Part shown: piece after piece, positions 19,663-62,759 of the stretch | Layout of the letters: each line of letters begins with the position of its first letter | Numbering within the stretch: the stretch's first letter is position 1 | Made by a program: the position numbers and the translations under genes | The notes under the pieces: generated by a model | The model's database searches: none | Told to the model about the DNA's origin: nothing | What the model saw: the letters and a program-made list of their open reading frames with translations, nothing else | NCBI GenBank assembly: GCA_030141605.1 | Contig: JAQGDQ010000258.1 | Location: forward strand, 124,001 to 188,000 | Length of the DNA stretch: 64,000 bases | From: Tubiluchus corallicola | Taxonomy: Eukaryota > Animalia > Priapulida | Direction of reading: 5' to 3'

Positions 19663-22600
19663 TTAAGATTTTTTTGACCGAAAGAAACATTTAGTAACTG
19701 AACTGAATTTTAAAAGTGACGCTGAAAAGTGGCGCAGACAAATCAAACGTTCTGCAAAATGCTGCTTAAAAACTAGACGATAATGACATTTCGCAAGCCG
19801 CAAGGTCTAATAGAATATGAAATTCTTTGTCACCATTATCATCAATATCAATGTCATCATGATTGTCATGAAACAAGAATAATTATAATGGCTTTGTCAG
19901 AGATCTCTTGGTTGTTTTAGCAATAGAAAATTATGACAGTATCTTAGAGGAAAGTTACTCTTGATTTACCTTTGCCCACTGTTTACATGTACTGTACTTT
20001 GTAGCCAATTTCGTAGCTCTTAAAATATTTAATGGCCTGATTTTAGTAAATAATGAAAAATTATTCATTTGAAGTGAAGTGATACTGCGCATTTCAAGTT
20101 ACAATAGATGTTTTATTCAGCTCCGCTATCTGTTAAGCAGGTGTAAGCAGAGACTGTAGTATAAGTCTCTCGTACATAGATTTAAATGACGTCCATACCT
20201 GCGTGAAACTCGTTTTAGACTGATCGGATCGAATCGGACCTAATCTGATCTGATCCGATCCCATCCCATCCCATCCAATCCAATCCAATCCAATCCAATC
20301 CAATCCAATCCAATCCAATCCAATCCAATCCAATCCAATCTAATCTAATCTAATCCCATCCATCCAATACAATGTAATTTGTGCTACATCTTTATAAACA
20401 GGACTGCAGGCTACAACATTATTCATAAAGAACACACTAACTCTACAGTAACTACCTATATTTACCAGGATTAACGTGTCGTCATCTTCTATTTCATGTG
20501 TATATTCTTCCGTTAAATTATCACACTCGAGTTCTACCACAGTCAGCACCAGTATCCCATTTTGAATTTTATAAGTATTCTAAAATGCCGCAAATAATAT
20601 AATTGTAGTAACTTTTTATACATTCTTAACTTCTTTTTGTTGTACTGCTATGTGAGTGTGCAAAACTATGAAGGCATATTATGCATTATTATCCTACTAG
20701 TACATTGGAATTAGTAGCTATAATAATTATTTCACACTTTTCATTTAAAATTTGACTGCTAATTTCGTTCAAAAACATACAAAAAAGAGTAAAGACACTA
20801 TTTATTTATTCAAGCGAATTCAGATCTCGGAAAATAATCTTATTTTCACTTTCAATTGACTGGTCTTACGATTTATTTACTACATGTCTAGAATTAAATT
20901 TTCCTAGAAAGTTCGACATATGACAATTTTAAGATTGCAGTACACTTCAGGTCATAAGCTTCTAGCTTCTAGTGTATATATATATGGCAGTTGTGCGTAC
21001 AGCATTGGAATTATATAATATAATATAATATATTTTTATATAGATATATATTCTATATATATATTTCTATATATATATATATATATACATATATACTCAT
21101 ACTCAAATACTCATATATCTTTCATCGCATATCATTATGCAATGCATTGACAATAGATTACATTGGCAGTATAATGGTAACAATATAAATAACATAATTT
21201 TATAATGTATGCCTCCCACAGATTTTTGTCAAAAAATATTAAGTGTTTTAAAGTGTACGTCTGTTCGCTTCGCAAATCTTTTACTCTGGCAGAAGTGGTT
21301 ACGGTTACAATCATTACGGCAAATCACTTTGATTTCTGACGATGATGATGATGATATGCAGTTATTAAAATAAATTTGGTAAATCTTACTGTTATCTTCT
21401 GTCCCATTGCACTTCGGGTATCTACAGTTTTCCCCAGTTCAAATTTGACATTGTGAAATGTCTGGAAAACGGCATAAACACGGATGTGGTAGGTACCTTC
21501 ACCTGTATCTTGTATGTCCATGTAAGTGGTGGTTGCCTTTGATGCGTATCTAAGGAATGGCAATACTTCTGCAGAACATGTAAAGGGTACAGTATTAGGA
21601 TATGTAATTTAACGGTAAACGCAGAGTCAATTTCAAGAAAATATGTTAAAGCATCACAAAAGCAGTTTTATGTCACTAACAATGGACTGCACAGTACACC
21701 TAAGAGTGATGTCGGGCTATAAACCAAGAAAGAGCTTAAACTGCGTGAAATTTTGATGAAAACAAGTACATCATTATATTAGACTTCAAAACAGGGTAGT
21801 GTAGCAAGATAAACTAGATATCTTAGGCCTGTAGGTAAATAGGTCTGAATCAAAGTTAGTGGAGCAACCATGACAGATTTTGGCAATTTGGGTGCCACGT
21901 GACCTATTTAAGCAACAAAATCCTGTGAAAGTGAAACATAGTAACTTCTGATGACTTGTTAATTATTTATAATCTTCATATTAATGTTAATATTAATGAT
22001 GCCACAATAAATTAAATTTTGAAACAAAATTTTAAAACAGGAAATGTGAAAAGTTGTAACACAGTAGGATTTGAACCAAGACCTTCTGCTTAGAAGGTAG
22101 ATGACTTATATCAATGATCAATGTGAATGATCAACACAACACCACGGCATGCACTCAATGGTGAATGACCACTACGGTAAGTGCACAATGGAACACCACG
22201 ACGCACACTCGCCGAATGATTACTACAACACCGTAGCGTTAACACACCACTGCATCATACAACAAAAGATTGCCAAGGGTCACTTCATGAATTGAAGTGA
22301 ATTCTTAAAGCACTATAGTTCGTGAATTTTCATTTTTTGGATACTGTAATGTGTAAGTAAACCACTTGTCTGTTCTTTATCCTACACAGAATATTTTGGT
22401 AAAGAACTCCATTACAAAAAAATAGAATACAAAAAGGAAGAGATTTTTTTACACGGAGCACCTTAAATTGTATACATAATTTTTCCATACTAGTTCATGG
22501 TATGTAATGACCATTATGGAAATGAAGTTATACGCGCACATTTTGCACAGATATACAGAAAAAAATGTACAAAATCTATTTTCACACTCACGAATTATAC

Positions 22601-27200: not shown

Positions 27201-29131
27201 CTTTCAACTTTACACTTTACTTTGGTCGCAAATCTGCACATGACTACTTCGAATTATCTACAAAAACTTTAGATTTTCTGACGCTCAATAACTGCAGCTT
27301 ACTTTAGATGCTACAAGCGATGTGTTTTGGAGCTTTTTATACCCACTATGTGGCGTTTTAGATTGTACTTAGTTATCCATTTTTACATTCAGCCAGCAGG
27401 TGAAGGACAAAGGGTAACAGGTTACAGTAGCCCAGATTCCAGGCAAACTGATGTTGAAACTATTTCTAGAATGATAAAATTGCTGGAGTCGCTTCCTAAA
27501 CAAAGAGCTGTCATTTGCCCATGCAGTACAGTGACAGTGCTGACACAATAGACTTTTTTTTGTGTTGAGCTATTTTGCCTTTTTTACACCATAACGATTG
27601 CAGATTCAGATGGTACAATAATAACTTCTTCTTGTTCATTAACATTTGATTTCATATTAGTCAGCGTCACTTAGTTTCAGTTTCACCAGATAATACAAAA
27701 ATTTCATGTCATGTCACGCATCAAATTAGTCAGGGTTCTCAAATCTTCATTAATTTTGTTTAAGGTACATTAATTTGGACGTTAGACCTAATGTGTTGCA
27801 CAGCAAACAAGAAAGTGCATTTTTGACACTAAATTCCACAATATGAAGTTTGTTTTATGAAAACCAATCAATTTTATGAAATTTATTTATGGTGTTTCTA
27901 GAACGTGGTAGTTCTAATCAGATGTGTGAAAGATTTATAAAATCGTATTTAGAGTTAAAACAGTTCATTCTTGCTTACAAAGAACTTCATATTTTGTACA
28001 CATTCTATATACAGCTTGTTCTCTTTGGATGGTATTTTCGTTCTGTCAGCCAAATCCAGTTTCAAAGCAATTTTATTTTGTCGCGTCAAATCGAAGTCGA
28101 TGCATTGAAAAACAAGTCAAGTGTCACATCATTTTAGTTCATGGAATGAGTGACTATGTACAGACGTGACAACTCAAAACCGAGTCAGCAGCTTTTTTTG
28201 CAGTCAGTTTGATGATTTCTGTACGCCATGAGTAGTACTGTTCACTACATTTGCACTATCTAGCGTAGTACCTTTTCTTTGTGTCTTTTTCGGTTTAACA
28301 TGGTGGGTTTAGAAACTCGCATTGACTTTCTCTTTGTTGTCAGCTGCCAGGCTAGTTTGCCCACTGATCAGCTGATTGTACCCTATAACGTACGTACATT
28401 GCCAGGTCACTTGTAAAGCAGCTGCGGGCAGGTTGTGCTGTAACTCAGGATACTATGACAAGTTCCTTTGTGTTCTGGATACCGTGTACGTGACATGCTG
28501 TATAGGATATTTTGTTCCTATTAATGTAAGATTTATGCTACAATTGCATTATTATGTTACATGTTTTCCCGGATAGATCCCGTGTCCATCCTGTTTGACA
28601 AGGTTTAATTGAATAAGTATATCATTGGGTATACGGTAATCATTTGTGTTATTTGCAGTGGTGAAGTTTTCTATATTCACATTTTGCAAGGAATTTTAAT
28701 TTGTCTGTACACGTTAAATGGTAATTTCAGTTTTGTGTTGTTGTCAATAAACCATGTTGCTTTTCTTTGCTAAACCTTTAGAAATCCAGTGGTTAGTGAT
28801 TAACATTTCTAAAGAGCACACGTATATTTGATTTCATACTGCAGTGTAGTGTATATATTAATTAATGACGACAGTTTTGGTTGTGTTAGGTTATATCTAA
28901 GTTGATCTATTTGTCTTCTACGTCACTTGCAAGACTAAGGCCAACTTTAAAACATAAATCAGTTGTATTTTCACAGTACTATTTTCAGCGTTATTTCGTG
29001 GTTTGTTCAACTTTGTTGTGTGTTTACACGTCATTGAAAAGATCTCATTATAAGGGGGAATTTGGTGGTGAATCTTGTTACAGTTTAGTCAATGATTCTA
29101 TATTTAATCAACACAGGATTTTATTTTACAG

Positions 29132-29450
29132 GTTGCTACCTTCAAGCTGGTTGCAGATTATTGACATCTGAGGTTGCTGAGCTAGTTACGTGTTTGCTTG
29201 GCTTATCAACATTTAGTAACCGAGGATTTAGCCAGTTAGGGCGGTGCTAGGATAACAAGTCATTACCATTATTATCGTCAAGGTAACCCCAGTGTGCGCC
29301 AGCCACTGAGCTGGCAGGATAACAACCATAGGCCAGCAACTTGCTTGTTGGACATCACCTCATCACTGCCTGCCACCCTTCAACACCTGGGATCAACCGG
29401 CAGAGTTAGACACACGTGCTAATGGTGTCAAGATGGTAAAAACATTCCAG
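29132..29450 (+). other. YPEL: YPEL exon carrying the 5' leader, candidate non-AUG start (29328) and AUG (29433)
   Basis: Acceptor ttattttacag| at 29131; donor CAG|gtatga at 29450; upstream non-coding exon(s) not located. Confidence 0.7.
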
Positions 29451-32400
29451 GTATGAACAACGTTTTCCCCTTTTTCCTTTAGCTTGCTACTCAGGATCTT
29501 AATTGGACTTAAAGAATGTGATATTTAGGATTTAAAATCTATTACAATATCTTATTGATTGTTTTGTCGTATCTTAAAAACAATTTTAACAAATAAAAAA
29601 TCATTAAAGTTCTATAATTATTGTGTGGTTCAACCATCAGGTAGTAAAAAATATCAGATATTTTGATGACAAATTGCACTGTGTTAGTGTCTATATGTCA
29701 ACTTTTGAATGATCAAATTGCTGTAATACTATGGTACTGCAAAACTTTATTAAAATATTTAGTTAAATCCATCAACGTAATAAAATGTGCTCGAATATGT
29801 TAAGTCTGTTTATCATTTCTGCATTAAAACATAATGGATGGGTTAAATGATTACTGAAATAGAAGACTGCAATTCATACAAACATAAGTCATGAGCTTCT
29901 GATTGATTCTGGAAGTAGTTGTAGCCTTTGCAGTTCAATATTAATTTATTATGTTTACTGTTATTAATTGTGCTCCACAGTTTGGAATCACAGCTGTGAA
30001 TTCTATGCCTATATTCTGCATATGATTTCCTGGACTTCTAGAAATACGTACAGTAAATTTTCCAATGTTGAAAGAAATCAAAGTTTTTTTGTTGAATAAT
30101 AGTTAGTGTAGTTGCTTGTAATGCGGAAGATTTGAATCTAATGCCCAGTGAGAAAGCAAATCACAACCAAGTCTCATTTATTAACGTCTTAATGCACCTC
30201 GTTATAATGCCTAACTCCCTTTTGAAGTTTCGAGCAAGCTAAACATTGTGTTTTTATGCCAGAATTTGTGATGCTCTTGCATTTCAAAATGCACTAATAT
30301 CTTAATTTTATATATTATTTTTTAACGAAATCATATGTGGCTGGTTTTAAGTTGCCAGTACATATACTAAGTGAAATAATTTATATGACATCAGAACAAG
30401 GTTAATTTATGTAGATGCACAAAACTGATTTTTAATCACTTTGTGATTTTTGTACAGCTGTTTTGAGTAAGGAGGAGGCCATTTTGTATTATGGTTTTGT
30501 TTTTTGAAGTGTTACAACTAAAAGTGACTGTAGGGAAAGTTCTTTTTGCACCATGTTCACACTGCTTTTTACAGGTGATACATAAAGCTATATTTATGGG
30601 TCTGTTTCTCTGTTCAATAAATTTAGCGCTGGTTTAGCCACATGGCATGAAGCCAATTTAATCTTGCTGTTTCATTTTTAGTAGGCAATTCATTAGGTGC
30701 AGGATGAAGCCATTTTAGTGATGGCTTTTTATTGTTATTTCAGGCATACCTACCAAACTGTCATCGCACTTACTCATGTGTGCACTGCCGGGCACATCTA
30801 GCTAATCATGATGAGCTCATATCTAAGGTAAGTGTCTAGTTACCTATGTCGTAGTCATCATTCTCCGTTTCTCTGCACTTTTAGAGCTTCTGTGTTATGA
30901 CGAAGCTGCTGTAATCTATCTTATTATTGATTGAATGGTGGTCAGTTGCTTACTGCAGTAGAAATCCTGGATACGTCTACTGAAAAAATCGCAGGCTGGA
31001 TTTCTTCTCGGAGTTTCTTTGTATATCACGAGGTAGTTTTTCGTATACAGCTGTTAAATCTCTTATATTTTCTGCATTATTTAGCTGTTTATGCTGTTGG
31101 CGTTTGACAATGAGTCGTTATACCTTACTGCTTAAGTCCTAAGCGGATAGCACTGCATCTCTAGCAGTCACTTCTAATTCAGTCAGAATCTATTTACTAC
31201 AGAAATCCTTATTGCTTTAGTTTATTGCCTTGAAGGCCACTCATGGGAGATTACTATCTGTCGATGCTTAGAAGCTTGCTAAATTAAATTAATTTTCTTT
31301 ATGGAAATGTAGGTTAAATGAAAGTTAGGACCTTATGACTGAGTTCGGGATGATTTAGTTTCAGATATTTGTTGGATGCCCTTTTGCATTATAATTTTTA
31401 ACATAGTTTTGTTATTTAATGTAATATTTGTAGCCTGTAGAGATACCTTTGCATGAAATAGTTCAAAACTTAAATGGTTAGGTTTTATGTTTGTGGTATA
31501 ATATCATAATCATCTAGGACTTTCAATGGGTTCTATTCTGCCTAAAATCTGACAAAAAACCTGATACATATGCCAGCACATTCACCAAACACCTCTTATC
31601 TTTTCGTTTTTGAGAATTATTTATAAAATATCAGTGAATTTTCATTGGCTTTAGTTAAAGCACAGCCCCTGGTCTAATTTTCTAATTTGATTTAATTTAA
31701 CTATTATTAGGCAGAAATCTTGCTTGAATAATAAACAGTATAACCAATGATAAATTTAATTTTATAAGTGATAACTTTAATTTTTGCTTCATATCATTTG
31801 TCAGAACTTAAACTATAATTCATGTTATCAAGAACTGAGTTCAACTGATTGAACAATAATATTTTGATTGGTTGTTATTGAGCATTTATTTAGTAACTAA
31901 TAGCAGTAGCAATTAATGCAATGCGATTACTAGCGAAGTGTCACTATACAAATTAATTTGTGTATTATGCTTCATAACTGTAATGTGCTGTTTTGTGACT
32001 CATTTTGCAAAGATAAGATCATAAATTGCTGATATGGTTACTTCAGAGAAATTTACAGCCCAAATTGCTTTTTATAAATAAATAAATTATATATATGTTT
32101 GAAAGGATGTCAGATGCTCTCTAGTAATGCAGATTGTTAGATGACTAGCGAAATTAGAATGCAAGCTGGGTGATTGATCAATAGAGATAAGTCCATATGG
32201 CTTCATTTGATACATCTAGCTATAGCTTAGCTCATTACTTTCTTTGGTTGGCTTCAGTTTTGGTGTGTTTGAATCTGCCAGGTCAAAAGCGTTATTATGG
32301 ATTTTCCTGATTGATGCTGTAACAGCAAAGTGGTAGTTGCAGTCCAGTATCTACTGGCTCGGCCATGTGAGGCGAAACTGCAGTGGAATATTTTAACCCT

Positions 32401-34641
32401 ATTGATGACAGAGATAGTAGTTCTTTCCACTGTATGAAATTGTTGATTTGAGTCAGAGGTGAATCACTGATTACTAAGTAGATCGTTGAACATCAATGAC
32501 AGTTATATATGAGATTCCTTGCAGCTTGCATTATTTACTTTGCAATATCGGCACTACTGCTGTCCATAGTTACCAATAATAAACCATAGTTTGTTGTACT
32601 GAATTGTGTTTGGATAAGCGCTCGCATGAGAAACTGTAAGTTCCTACTTGTTTGTAGCATACTGAAGACTATTTTGGTGAATTCATAGTCTTACAACCCA
32701 GTTCAAGTTATGAAGCTTATTTCTATTAATTAAATAGTTTTATAGTAAAGTACAAGAACTTTATTTAATAACATATTGTAAAATTTGTAATGTCGTCAAG
32801 CAATTTTATGTAACACTATACAAAGAGGCTGTAGATAATGGTTCACTGTTAATTAATTAAACTACAGGAATTAAATTCCCAAACATTTTGTTAGGCTGCC
32901 CACTAAGTGCCTATGTGTAAATTAAAAGTATGTTATTTTTATAAAGTTCGAATGAATTTTGCTTTCTTATATGTTACTGTTTATTGGATTCACCCGCTAA
33001 AGTAGTTTGCTTGGGTGGTAACTCATGATAAGAGGGAAGATACAAATTTTTTAGAAAATAGAATTTAAGAGTTTCTCACAAAGTTAGTGGCAAAACACAA
33101 ATGCTGGTATCCTGTTAATTAAATATTTACCGGTTTTTAATAATTGCAGAACATACAAATCTTTATTCTGATTGTGAGTATAATTTGTGCATTTTTTTCA
33201 GTCTTTCCAAGGAAGTCAAGGCCGAGCCTACTTATTCAACTCAGTGTAAGTGTTTTACTTTTGTTGTACACGGCTTTTACTTTTTCATTTTGCTTCTCTA
33301 CTTCTATGGTTTTGATGTCCCCACGGCATTGCTGTGCAGATTGCTAGATGCTGTTTCTTCATAAAAAGGTAGCTTTGAAAATGTGTGTCTTTGTAATGTA
33401 TATTAGTAGATGTATTATGTATAGATGCGTAAAATTGTTGTTTATATAATATGCATAAGACAAGTTATGATGCTTGTTCAGAGATGCTTTTAACAGAGTC
33501 TTGTTTCTTTATTACAGTGTAAACGTAGGTTGTGGACCAGCTGAGGAACGAGTCCTGCTTACGGGTCTCCATGCTGTAGCAGACATATTTTGTGAATGCT
33601 GCAAAACAACACTGGGCTGGAAATACGTATGTGTAAACTTAGCATTACTGTATTGTAAATTTTGCAATATGAACTCTTGTTTGTGATAATGCTATTTACT
33701 TAGGTTTGTACACAGATACATGATGTCAAATATTTTTGTGCCATTACACGGAAATTTATTTTGATCTTGGTGTTTGCTTATTGATAACAGAAACAGTGTT
33801 TTTACGTTGAGGTCAAGTTATGTACGAAGCAAACATTTCCTTGTTCTAGCTAAATGAGTCACTTGTACTACCATGTTTAGCATGTTCTTTGAAAGAAATA
33901 TGGGTGTTCTAAAGTTTAGTGCTAAAATTAACTTATGTAGTAATTTCGTGCCTAACAAAATATTACACAGAAAGTATGTGCATTATTGGTGGGTGGATAG
34001 CAATAGCAGCAGTTTACAAGCAGGTTAGATGATAAATGGGAGTTGATGGCATGCGATGAACATAAATATTGGCCAAGCTAAAAATTCGTTTGGTTTGTGT
34101 TTAAAATACTAAATTACTTACCATTGAATAACTATCACTGTGTTTTGCTTTAACTTAAAACGTCCTTAGAGAAACTGTCACATAAACAATGGAATTGTAA
34201 TTTTCTCTTATAATTCTTGTTGAGAAAGTTCAGTTTGCACTGGAAGACTAGAACAAGGCTTAATCTGTTTTAATTTGATTGGTCATTTTGTTTGAGTGTA
34301 CTTTCAAACTTGTTGGGTCACCATCATTCAGTTTTTTGATGGTCACACAGTATTGTATTGAAGTCATGTAAGAGAGATGATGATATAACTAAAACTAGAA
34401 ATCATTAACAAATAAGTAAATGAGAAAAGAACCAAACTGGAATCTCCTCCTTGTCTCAGATGGCTTTGCCTCATGCTTTCTGTTTGTGGAAGCTGCCTAG
34501 AATTAAAGTTTATATGCTTTTTTGCAGGAGCATGCATTCGAGTCATCTCAGAAATACAAGGAGGGAAAATACATCATTGAGCTGGCTCACATGATTAAAG
34601 AGAATGGGTGGGATAATGATGAACGGCAGCATTCTCCCTGA
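29433..34641 (+). CDS. YPEL: Protein yippee-like (YPEL1-4 group), 122 aa from the AUG
   Basis: Exons 29433-29450, 30744-30827, 33202-33245, 33518-33626, 34528-34641; [113 protein letters not shown]...; two CxxC zinc pairs; all GT-AG. Confidence 0.97.
30744..30827 (+). CDS. YPEL: YPEL coding exon 2
   Basis: tttcag| [28 protein letters not shown] |gtaagt. Confidence 0.96.
33202..33245 (+). CDS. YPEL: YPEL coding exon 3
   Basis: tttcag| [14 protein letters not shown](V) |gtaagt. Confidence 0.96.
33518..33626 (+). CDS. YPEL: YPEL coding exon 4
   Basis: ttacag| [36 protein letters not shown] |gtatgt. Confidence 0.96.
34528..34641 (+). CDS. YPEL: YPEL last coding exon
   Basis: ttgcag| [37 protein letters not shown] stop. 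Confidence 0.96.
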
Positions 34642-37600
34642 CAAATATTCTCTAAAAAATTTTGTTTCCTGCATAAGTGTGCACTTCTTTGCGGGTGTGC
34701 CTTTATTACGTGCTAATATAACTTGCAGATAAACTTTGGGACTATAAAATGCCTGAATTGAACTTTTATCAGTTGCTAAATGTTACTGTTGGGCAATGCA
34801 CTACATGAGAAACATGGTGGATGTGACATTGTGTCTGATTATCATATTAAGATTGTGGATTGAGACAGAACTCATTCTGTTTTATCAGTATCAAATGAGG
34901 AATATTGTGCTTCTTAGTGACATGAAACTTGTGTTTACATTTGACTGTGTGGGTGCTAAAGATAAATGGAGTTTTGGAGACTTCTTGGAAAATACACAGC
35001 ACAAGGAAGGGGTGATCAGTATAAGAAAAGATGGCGTGACAGTTGATAGCAAAACCACCGAACTTGCCTTGCTTTTTCCCACTTTTGCCTTTTCAAACGA
35101 ATGCATATTTACATTAAAAACTACTCAAGCTTATAGAAGTTTTACCTAATTAAGCCCTAAAGTTGACTTGTTTTTGATTATTAAAGCATATGAAGGTTTA
35201 CAATATTTTCGACACACGTTGCTAAAATTGCGTGAATTCGGTGGTTTTGCTACTTATCACGTTTGGAAGAGTGCTATTTTGGTATATACGCAGCGTAATA
35301 TACGTGTACAGTACTTATTTAGACATTGTAAATATTATTGATCTATGTTGTGCCGGTCGCTTTTGTTTTGTGGTCAGTAAGTTGTTTTTATTTATAAATA
35401 GTGATAAGTGCGGAGTGGCAAATTGTGATGCTTCATCTCACGACAGTTATTAAAATTACTACATGCACTCTTGTTCTTTTTGGTGCATTTAGATTGTTCA
35501 CAGTTCTTGCATTACAGTTTGATGGTAAACTTTTACAATAATTGTAAATGAAGCAGTGCATCTCACAGAGAAATTGTAAGACATTCTGGATGATTGTTGT
35601 GTTTAAGTAGCATTTAGTAACACAAAATTTACAGTTTGTTTGTTAAAAACCAAATAAAAGCTGAAAGGTACTATCTATTTTTTTAATGTTTAAATAGTCC
35701 AATATAGTCCAAGTTGTGAAAGATCATAGCTTTTCTGAAATACTGCTGTTTGTCTTTGCAAAATCTGGTTTAATTAGCTTTTTTAATTCATTTAAATTCT
35801 TGTGCCATAGCTTACATGTAGAAAATGTCAATTAAGAGTAAGTGAGAATTGATCACAGTTTGCCTTTGTTCTTCACTAATGCATTTCTTGTACATAAAAT
35901 TTGCAGAACATACACTTTTTAATCAACATAAGTGTAAATGTGAATGACCTTTTGACCTGAATTTGTTTGACAAATTGATGTCATACACGTATTTTAATTT
36001 CTGAAAGGCACACTGCCTAGCCCTACACCCAGTTTGTATGAAAAAAGTTTATTTTCACTTTTAACCATTGGTATTGACCAGAGTTATCCAAAGAACTTAA
36101 GATATGCAAGAGTGACCTTCATGGACATTTGCTTGCTATGTAACATGAACTGCAAATTTAAAACGAATTATACTAATTTTTTGTTCCATTGCAGTTTCTG
36201 ATGGCCGGACATCAGCTATTACATTTGAGTTAGCATGGTTCTCTTGCTTTGAAGAGGTTAAAAATTTTGTGTTCAATGGTTTGTGTTCAAGTCAGTTTAC
36301 ATTTTGACTTTTAATCTTCAAGAATGATATATAATGCACCTTTGCTTTCGCGTTTTCAGTTATATTGTAATTGTACTAATGTATTCTACTGGTCTGTAAG
36401 TCTAGTCACATTTACACCATGATTTGCTATTTTGTTATTATTAGTGATAAGTTTTGTGTTGGTTCAGTGGTCTAAGGTAACCAGCAAAATTATATGTAGC
36501 TACCATACCAAATTTGTTAGCAGCTTTCAACTAGATGTTAGAAGACTGCATTTCTTCAAGTTAAGTCTTATTATGGATTCCGTTGATTTCATGGCTAGTT
36601 TAAAACTGTTCCTTTAATTACTTGTTATTGTGCTCTTCTATAAATTTAATGCATTTGTATTATTGCACTGGAAGCGGTTTTCTTTTAATAATTACTCAAC
36701 ATGTTACTGTATGTTACTGATGTTCATGGGTTTACTTCTTTTTGATTGCTTACTCTATATAGCTTGTGTCATAAATTCTTATAATCTGATTGCAGTGCTG
36801 TTGTTCTCTATTTTAACATTTAAGCAATACTTCATTTCTAAGCATATATTACTACATATTAGAGTATGTAAGCATAGTCGATAGTGTGTTGATAACAACG
36901 TTTTTTGTGTTCACATTAGTGATACATACTGGGGAGAACAAGTACTGATTTAAGTGTTTCAAAGTTGTATGAAATGAAATTTTAATGAAAAATGGTAGTA
37001 ATAGAAGTAAGCAAAAGCAAAGATTTAATGTTCTCATTTTATGTGACCAATAAAAGAACATTAAAGAAATATTAGAACATGATGAAAAAAGTGAGTAAGT
37101 TTTAATAGGTTGGTATCCCAGCAGGAAATCTGCTTCAAAAATGACTTGTCTTTGCAAAACAATATTTATATGTAAATGTAAATCAATTCTTTAACTGATA
37201 GATAGCATGAAGTATGATCGTGTTTGAAAGGGAGACGCGTTTATTTTTGTTTTTGCTTATATGCCTTTTTCTACTTTTTCACTGTTTTTCCTAAAGCACT
37301 TCAGTCATTTCACAAAATTCAGAGAAAGCTTTCTTGGATTTTACCAATTTTTATCAATAATGTAGACATTGAACAGCCTTGGGTCGAATTTAACAAGTTG
37401 GTATTTTTTATTATTCTTGATAAGGTGATAAGGATACATATGAGCACACAGTGTTTTCCTATGTATGAATATGCATGAAACGTCAAATTAGTACTGTATC
37501 ATACAGCTTTGAGGACACATGTTTTTTTCTTTTTGAGGTTTAAAAGGATCTCGTACTGTTTATGTAATGCAGCGATGCAATGCATTGTAATCTACCACTG

Positions 37601-38249: not shown

Positions 38250-62759
<24,510 letters not shown>

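Follow-up and report, generated by a model that had tools for sequence, protein, structure and literature searches.

The locus considered here raises the question whether a Yippee-like (YPEL) gene of the priapulid Tubiluchus corallicola is translated from a near-cognate codon upstream of its canonical AUG as well as from that AUG, and whether the N-terminal extension added in this way would carry a lipid anchor. The window (the whole stretch of DNA analysed, 64,000 nucleotides of contig JAQGDQ010000258.1, positions 124,001 to 188,000, assembly GCA_030141605.1) was AT-rich and intron-rich animal genomic DNA, and its plus strand carried a YPEL1-4-type gene with five coding exons and a 122-aa product. 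The parts of the gene were as follows, in window positions:

29132..29450, plus strand: predicted leader exon, which holds the extension plus codons 1-6 (MVKTFQ), its 5′ boundary inferred
29433..29435, plus strand: canonical AUG with A at −3 and G at +4, start of the 122-aa short form, read from the sequence
30744..30827, plus strand: YPEL coding exon 2, with the first CxxC
33202..33245, plus strand: YPEL coding exon 3
33518..33626, plus strand: YPEL coding exon 4, with the second CxxC; 1223 homologues found by search
34528..34641, plus strand: last YPEL coding exon, ending at TGA 34639-34641

Judged by both CxxC motifs and a YPEL1-4-type core, the gene belongs to the YPEL1-4 (Yippee-like) subfamily; residues 1-85 gave up to about 84-88 identities with stored yippee-like proteins, and those homologues of exon 4 that bore names were mostly yippee-like. 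Pfam searches with single exons, which are too short, returned 0 hits; the homologous locus L024 (see below) passed PF03226. The leader exon ended at 29450 (donor CAG/GTATGA), the acceptor placed at 29131 scored 2.4 bits (95th percentile among local AGs), and GC content was 42–58% in 50-nt bins from 29150 to 29449 vs 18–38% in the flanks. A public contig of run X1, possibly from the same sample, spanned 29325-29631 with 0 differences; this run contained no splice joint and read like low-depth DNA. Run X2 aligned to the YPEL 3′ UTR only, and the part concerned (34730-35133, plus strand) was less than 90% identical to the X2 contig and may be a conserved UTR element. The intron at 29451-30743, directly after MVKTFQ, was absent from 43 of the 43 recognisable YPEL matches listed in the scan described below, a count from which intron-bearing matches would be missing since they would escape the recognition test used. 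A possible cryptic donor (AAG/GTAACC, 29280-29288, plus strand) lay in the leader exon, 5′ of the TGA and ATA given next.

Upstream of the canonical AUG, the leader exon contained the following elements:

29307..29309, plus strand: in-frame TGA, read from the sequence, which brackets the extension and blocks an in-frame upstream AUG within the exon
29319..29321, plus strand: second in-frame ATA (A at −3, A at +4), read from the sequence, a weaker possible start that would give (M)TTIGQQ..., without Gly2
29328..29330, plus strand: candidate AUA initiation codon, the sole near-cognate of the open frame with A at −3 and G at +4
29328..29432, plus strand: 35-codon N-terminal extension with Gly2, Cys7, Trp8 and Cys14, translation predicted
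29422..29439, plus strand: out-of-frame 5-codon ORF overlapping the main AUG, its own AUG with C at −3 and G at +4, its TAA at 29437-29439

A preliminary description of this DNA had proposed an AUA-initiated extension, and its reading of the letters was accurate: the frame is open back to the TGA at 29307, which is in frame with AUG 29433 and followed by 41 open codons; the ATA reads acaaccATAg, with A at −3 and G at +4; the 35 added residues are (M)GQQLACW...ANGVK; and no ATG occurs from 29132 to 29421, the first of the exon being that at 29422. The out-of-frame AUG 29422 and the second ATA 29319 had been missing from it. ATA 29328 is in frame with AUG 29433 and lies 7 codons 3′ of the in-frame TGA. 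Of the Ivanov criteria, those that concern the layout are found at this gene: an in-frame near-cognate in a favourable context, the lack of an in-frame AUG upstream of it in the exon, and a bracketing stop. No stable hairpin was found 3′ of the AUA (z +0.31 and +1.37).

The rate at which chance gives such a pattern was estimated from 20,000 dinucleotide-shuffled copies of 29132-29432. Of these copies, 12.8% had an open frame of 41 codons or more, 4.9% had a near-cognate (A at −3, G at +4) located 20 or more codons upstream, 1.8% had such a near-cognate together with a Cys in residues 2-10, and 0.28% had a vertebrate-like set (30-40 codons, Ala or Gly at position 2, Cys). Under a looser rule (R at −3) the figure for the near-cognate with Cys was 3.3%. 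These criteria were set after the window and the vertebrate cases had been viewed, and because they were chosen with both in view, the pattern of the window is by itself suggestive only, giving modest support for an AUA start.

The same segment could be coding but read from an AUG in an upstream exon, by way of an acceptor after the TGA (e.g. the AG at 29331, which would split the Gly codon). Decapod gene models suggest such a route, with a conserved Cys-rich stretch after alternative N-termini, one of which is a conserved Met-started peptide, and AG dinucleotides are present near the ATA at 29310, 29317, 29331 and 29336. These four, however, had only 2-3 T in the tract and scored −8.8 to −11.9, less than any of the ten true acceptors of the window (−6.1 to 7.7, 9-15 T), and GC content climbs from about 29150 with no break at 29331. 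All eight AGs between the TGA and the AUG scored −5.4 to −15.6, with 2-5 T in positions −22 to −3. With no usable acceptor in this interval, the frame could hardly be opened from an AUG in an upstream exon; such an origin appears unlikely on these scores, and the route as a whole is taken to be very improbable.

Non-AUG extensions are known from vertebrate members of the subfamily. According to Ivanov et al. (2011; PMC3105428), YPEL1, YPEL2 and YPEL4 are among ten extensions with a non-AUG start conserved in all vertebrates examined, and the human tails in the mRNAs given there begin with ACG followed by Ala, with A at −3, G at +4 and a Cys among the first residues. The YPEL2 extension is backed by Ribo-seq in the accessible part of 10.1101/2022.05.02.490320, where the YPEL1 extension appears without coverage and without a positive PhyloCSF score. 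The tail described here resembles these in its subfamily, in a near-cognate start with A at −3 and G at +4, in a small residue 2, in an early Cys and in length (35 codons; 33 codons in stored vertebrate YPEL2 and 35 in stored YPEL1 proteins), and leaky scanning to the downstream AUG is expected in both. It differs in using AUA and not ACG, in Gly2 in place of Ala2, in the lack of significant peptide similarity, in the out-of-frame AUG that overlaps the main start, and in its invertebrate host, the account in PMC3105428, as far as accessible, being concerned with vertebrates. Human YPEL3 isoform 2 has 38 extra N-terminal residues, ascribed in the accessible text of 10.1101/2023.07.31.551286 to alternative splicing in exon 1; it likewise forms a long and short pair that differs by a tail of about 35-38 residues, with 157 aa in the long form as predicted for the present gene, but here a candidate near-cognate start stands in place of splicing.

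Other invertebrates were covered by a motif scan of metagenome contigs, which gave at least 118 stretches, of which at least 43 were true YPEL and at least 11 spliced. Among the matches listed, nine distinct spliced YPEL transcripts were kept, L094 and L105 being left out as kin of L021 and L024, and each was scored for a near-cognate (R at −3, G at +4) located 20 or more codons upstream and a Cys in the first ten residues, a criterion fixed after the loci had been viewed. The pattern was present in three of these nine, with 0.28 expected from per-locus shuffles (P = 0.002); the start codons were CUG (L024, and also its kin L105), AUU (L103) and AUC or AUU (L046). The remaining six of the nine listed, including the fly-like L036, were without it, and two leaders were shorter than 300 nt. 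The fly YPEL coding sequence is a single exon according to the accessible text of PMC7286299.

In the Daphnia-like pair L024/L105, the 57 AUG-free codons from the CUG to the first AUG had a dS of 0.72 and a dN of 0.08 (ratio 0.11, Fisher P = 2e-7), and in-frame stops were located 13 and 6 codons 5′ of the CUG. The AUG-free CUG extension of this pair is under purifying selection at the protein level. Its tail and core start matched Daphnia magna YPEL (E = 8e-14), the database models of which begin at internal Met codons. An apparent match of Daphnia sinensis to the L024 start region was not significant (P = 0.51), and the long form of L024 gave no usable AlphaFold model (mean pLDDT 42).

Cys-rich extensions were also seen in predicted YPEL proteins of hemipterans, locusts, beetles, a mayfly, copepods and malacostracans; most of these have an annotated AUG start, and Cys was absent from the nematode YPEL tails seen. 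The AUG-started arthropod tails (hemipterans, Schistocerca, beetles, Calanus, decapods) are like the present one in having a Cys near the N-terminus before a MVKTFQ-type core, and differ from it in their annotated AUG starts, in mostly lacking Gly2 and in belonging to unvalidated gene models. The preliminary description had called near-cognate initiation an ancient YPEL feature and had pointed to invertebrate leaders as the place to look for a conserved near-cognate codon followed by Gly and Cys. The feature does extend outside vertebrates, on the dN/dS of L024/L105 and the three listed transcripts; its distribution is patchy only, with the six listed transcripts lacking it and many arthropods having AUG-started predicted tails. 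As to the residues, an early Cys follows the near-cognate in those three, and of the three L046 alone has Gly2.

Two further features of the nucleotide sequence were recorded at these loci. The first 21 codons after the CUG (L024:207-270, and L105) had few synonymous changes (pS 0.08 vs 0.59 in the core), and CACGTG occurred within 300 nt 5′ of the AUG in 22 of the 43 YPEL matches listed, many of them near-duplicates, as well as at 29413 in the window.

In shuffle tests the extension peptide had no significant similarity to the vertebrate tails (P 0.33-0.95), L024 (P = 0.31), L103 (P = 0.95) or L046 (P = 0.07). The score summed over 18 tails gave P = 0.24 against shuffles and P = 0.02 against window peptides. 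Two of 36 tests gave nominal matches, one to thrips that was chosen after an initial inspection (local P = 0.001) and one to shrimp (P = 0.004, anchored at the start). A start-anchored W21/P24 match to vertebrate YPEL2 was not significant (P = 0.11). Because peptide similarity is not significant, homology of the extension rests on position and architecture. A word-based protein search with the extension gave no match, in a weak test that also missed proteins sharing KMVKTFQ words; phmmer against 1.84 billion representatives gave 4 matches, each of them multi-stretch and, in the parts shown, unlike YPEL; an Atlas search gave no usable match; and a scan of viral contigs gave 4 matches, about the chance level. 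Blastn and tblastn of the leader against 122 loci recovered the search motif or short words only, and no close relative of T. corallicola was found by word search, phmmer or leader blastn/tblastn.

These results bear on the simplest alternative, that the segment is an ordinary 5′ UTR in which AUA, Gly and Cys stand by chance and the 122-aa form alone is made. Chance rates as high as those above for the 41-codon frame and for the start with Cys would be compatible with this, as would the dissimilarity to vertebrate tails and the six extension-less transcripts among the nine listed; against it stand the enrichment of the pattern in the listed YPEL transcripts, the selection on the L024/L105 extension, and the match in length and context to the vertebrate tails. 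An ordinary 5′ UTR is considered unlikely. When a prior of 1 to 3 in 9 was roughly updated with a false-positive rate of 3%, the AUA start came out at a high probability, and this estimate was lowered because the criteria were post hoc and the transcript ends are predicted; after this correction, AUA 29328 is still probably present in the mature mRNA and used as a start. The extension would then be a likely invertebrate variant of the known vertebrate mechanism.

As to the lipid anchor, Src-family and G-alpha N-termini are dually acylated, with a Met-Gly start and a nearby Cys, and the long form of HCK is CUG-started. An acylation site would be expected to appear as an early Cys with hydrophobic or aromatic neighbours, and palmitoylated tails have no strict consensus. 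The predicted tail is like the Src-family/G-alpha type and the HCK long form in Met-Gly and a nearby Cys; it is unlike the Src-family/G-alpha type in having Ala and not Ser or Thr at position 6, no basic patch and a Gly2 that is not conserved in YPEL, and its acylation is only predicted. HCK is listed among non-AUG genes in the accessible part of 10.1101/2022.05.02.490320.

Myristoylation of Gly2, as suggested in the preliminary description, fits the peptide, G-Q-Q-L-A-C matching a PROSITE-type pattern (Gly2, with permitted residues at positions 3, 6 and 7), but the same pattern was matched by 383 of 2096 (18%) random Gly-started window peptides, and Gly2 is not conserved, being mostly Ala: it was found only here and in L046, with Ala2 in human YPEL1/2/4, L024/L105 and L103. 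Of 422 stored proteins, 299 had a KTFQ-type motif and 204 of these had at least 25 aa before it; only 6 of the 204 began with MG, a count that uses predicted starts, in which non-AUG starts would be invisible. What recurs in many otherwise unrelated tails, though not in all, is a Cys near the N-terminus, often with hydrophobic or aromatic neighbours. Since this early Cys, the shared element of the tails, recurs and Gly2 does not, S-acylation appears the better candidate for a conserved function, and myristoylation here would be at most a lineage-specific addition. If the tail is translated, it may quite possibly direct localisation, with S-acylation of Cys7 and Cys14 as the likeliest means; that Gly2 myristoylation assists, in this lineage only, is doubtful.

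A tail translated from the AUA could also act without lipid: for example, it could simply be flexible, serve as an N-degron, add a Cys/His contact with metal or a partner, or mainly tune short-form output. Gly2 is not conserved, and an unmodified N-terminal Gly can act as a degron in the accessible text of PMC13082882; the tails vary widely in sequence and length; and the literature searched, at title level, contained no direct study pairing YPEL with myristoyl or palmitoyl terms. The recurrence of an early Cys near hydrophobic or aromatic residues across unrelated tails speaks against a lipid-free role, which is considered possible but less likely than not.

The explanation preferred here is leaky scanning, in which a Cys-tailed long form started at the AUA is made alongside the short form. 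A minority of scanning ribosomes would initiate at AUA 29328, giving a 157-aa YPEL with a 35-residue Cys-bearing tail, and most would leak past to AUG 29433 and make the 122-aa form; AUG 29422 would divert some ribosomes at the expense of the short form and thereby shift the long-to-short ratio upwards. The tail would serve as a localisation tag, most probably via S-acylation of Cys7/Cys14. Taken as a whole, this explanation is judged somewhat probable. A broader conjecture, offered tentatively and on balance improbable, is that a Cys-tipped near-cognate long YPEL is at least as old as the vertebrate-arthropod ancestor, that the weak start was kept while its codon was swapped (ACG, CUG, AUU/AUC, AUA and some AUG), and that start-codon stringency would toggle soluble vs lipid-anchored YPEL, a switch missed by standard cDNA studies.

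To our knowledge, non-AUG extensions conserved beyond vertebrates have rarely been described, and the largely open-access literature searched contained no paper on an invertebrate non-AUG YPEL extension or on YPEL acylation. YPEL function is still poorly defined, according to published abstracts. In the accessible text of 10.1101/2023.07.31.551286, a YPEL2 interaction study, protein lengths are AUG-started and cDNAs N-terminally tagged; such lengths and tags would miss or mask a YPEL tail of this kind. A long form that proved real and lipid-anchored would be an overlooked proteoform in human cells and Daphnia, and many invertebrate gene models would then be truncated.

Other genes were also seen in the window. 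Minus-strand exon-like frames at 429-683 and 21327-21608 gave no Pfam hit; the first resembles USP32 and the second a filamin-type repeat. An ERK-type MAPK gene (38250 to at least 60360, plus strand) has the same orientation as YPEL and begins about 3.6 kb beyond its stop codon. The mouse database model P0284 fuses MAPK1 to YPEL1, which fits YPEL-MAPK linkage; the corresponding human neighbourhoods are presumably YPEL1-MAPK1 and YPEL3-MAPK3. Intron 1 of the MAPK gene contained a fragmented BEL/Pao-type LTR retrotransposon with many short frames (39500-44110, minus strand), in which Peptidase_A17 and DUF1759 scored above the Pfam cut-offs and the integrase was weak. The MAPK activation-segment exon was present in two tandem copies (57419-57548 and 58838-58970, plus strand) of the same phase, both with donor GTATCC; the copy at 58838-58970 is canonical, and that at 57419-57548 is diverged and one residue shorter, with TEY kept. 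The two copies are candidate mutually exclusive exons, which would give two ERK activation loops.
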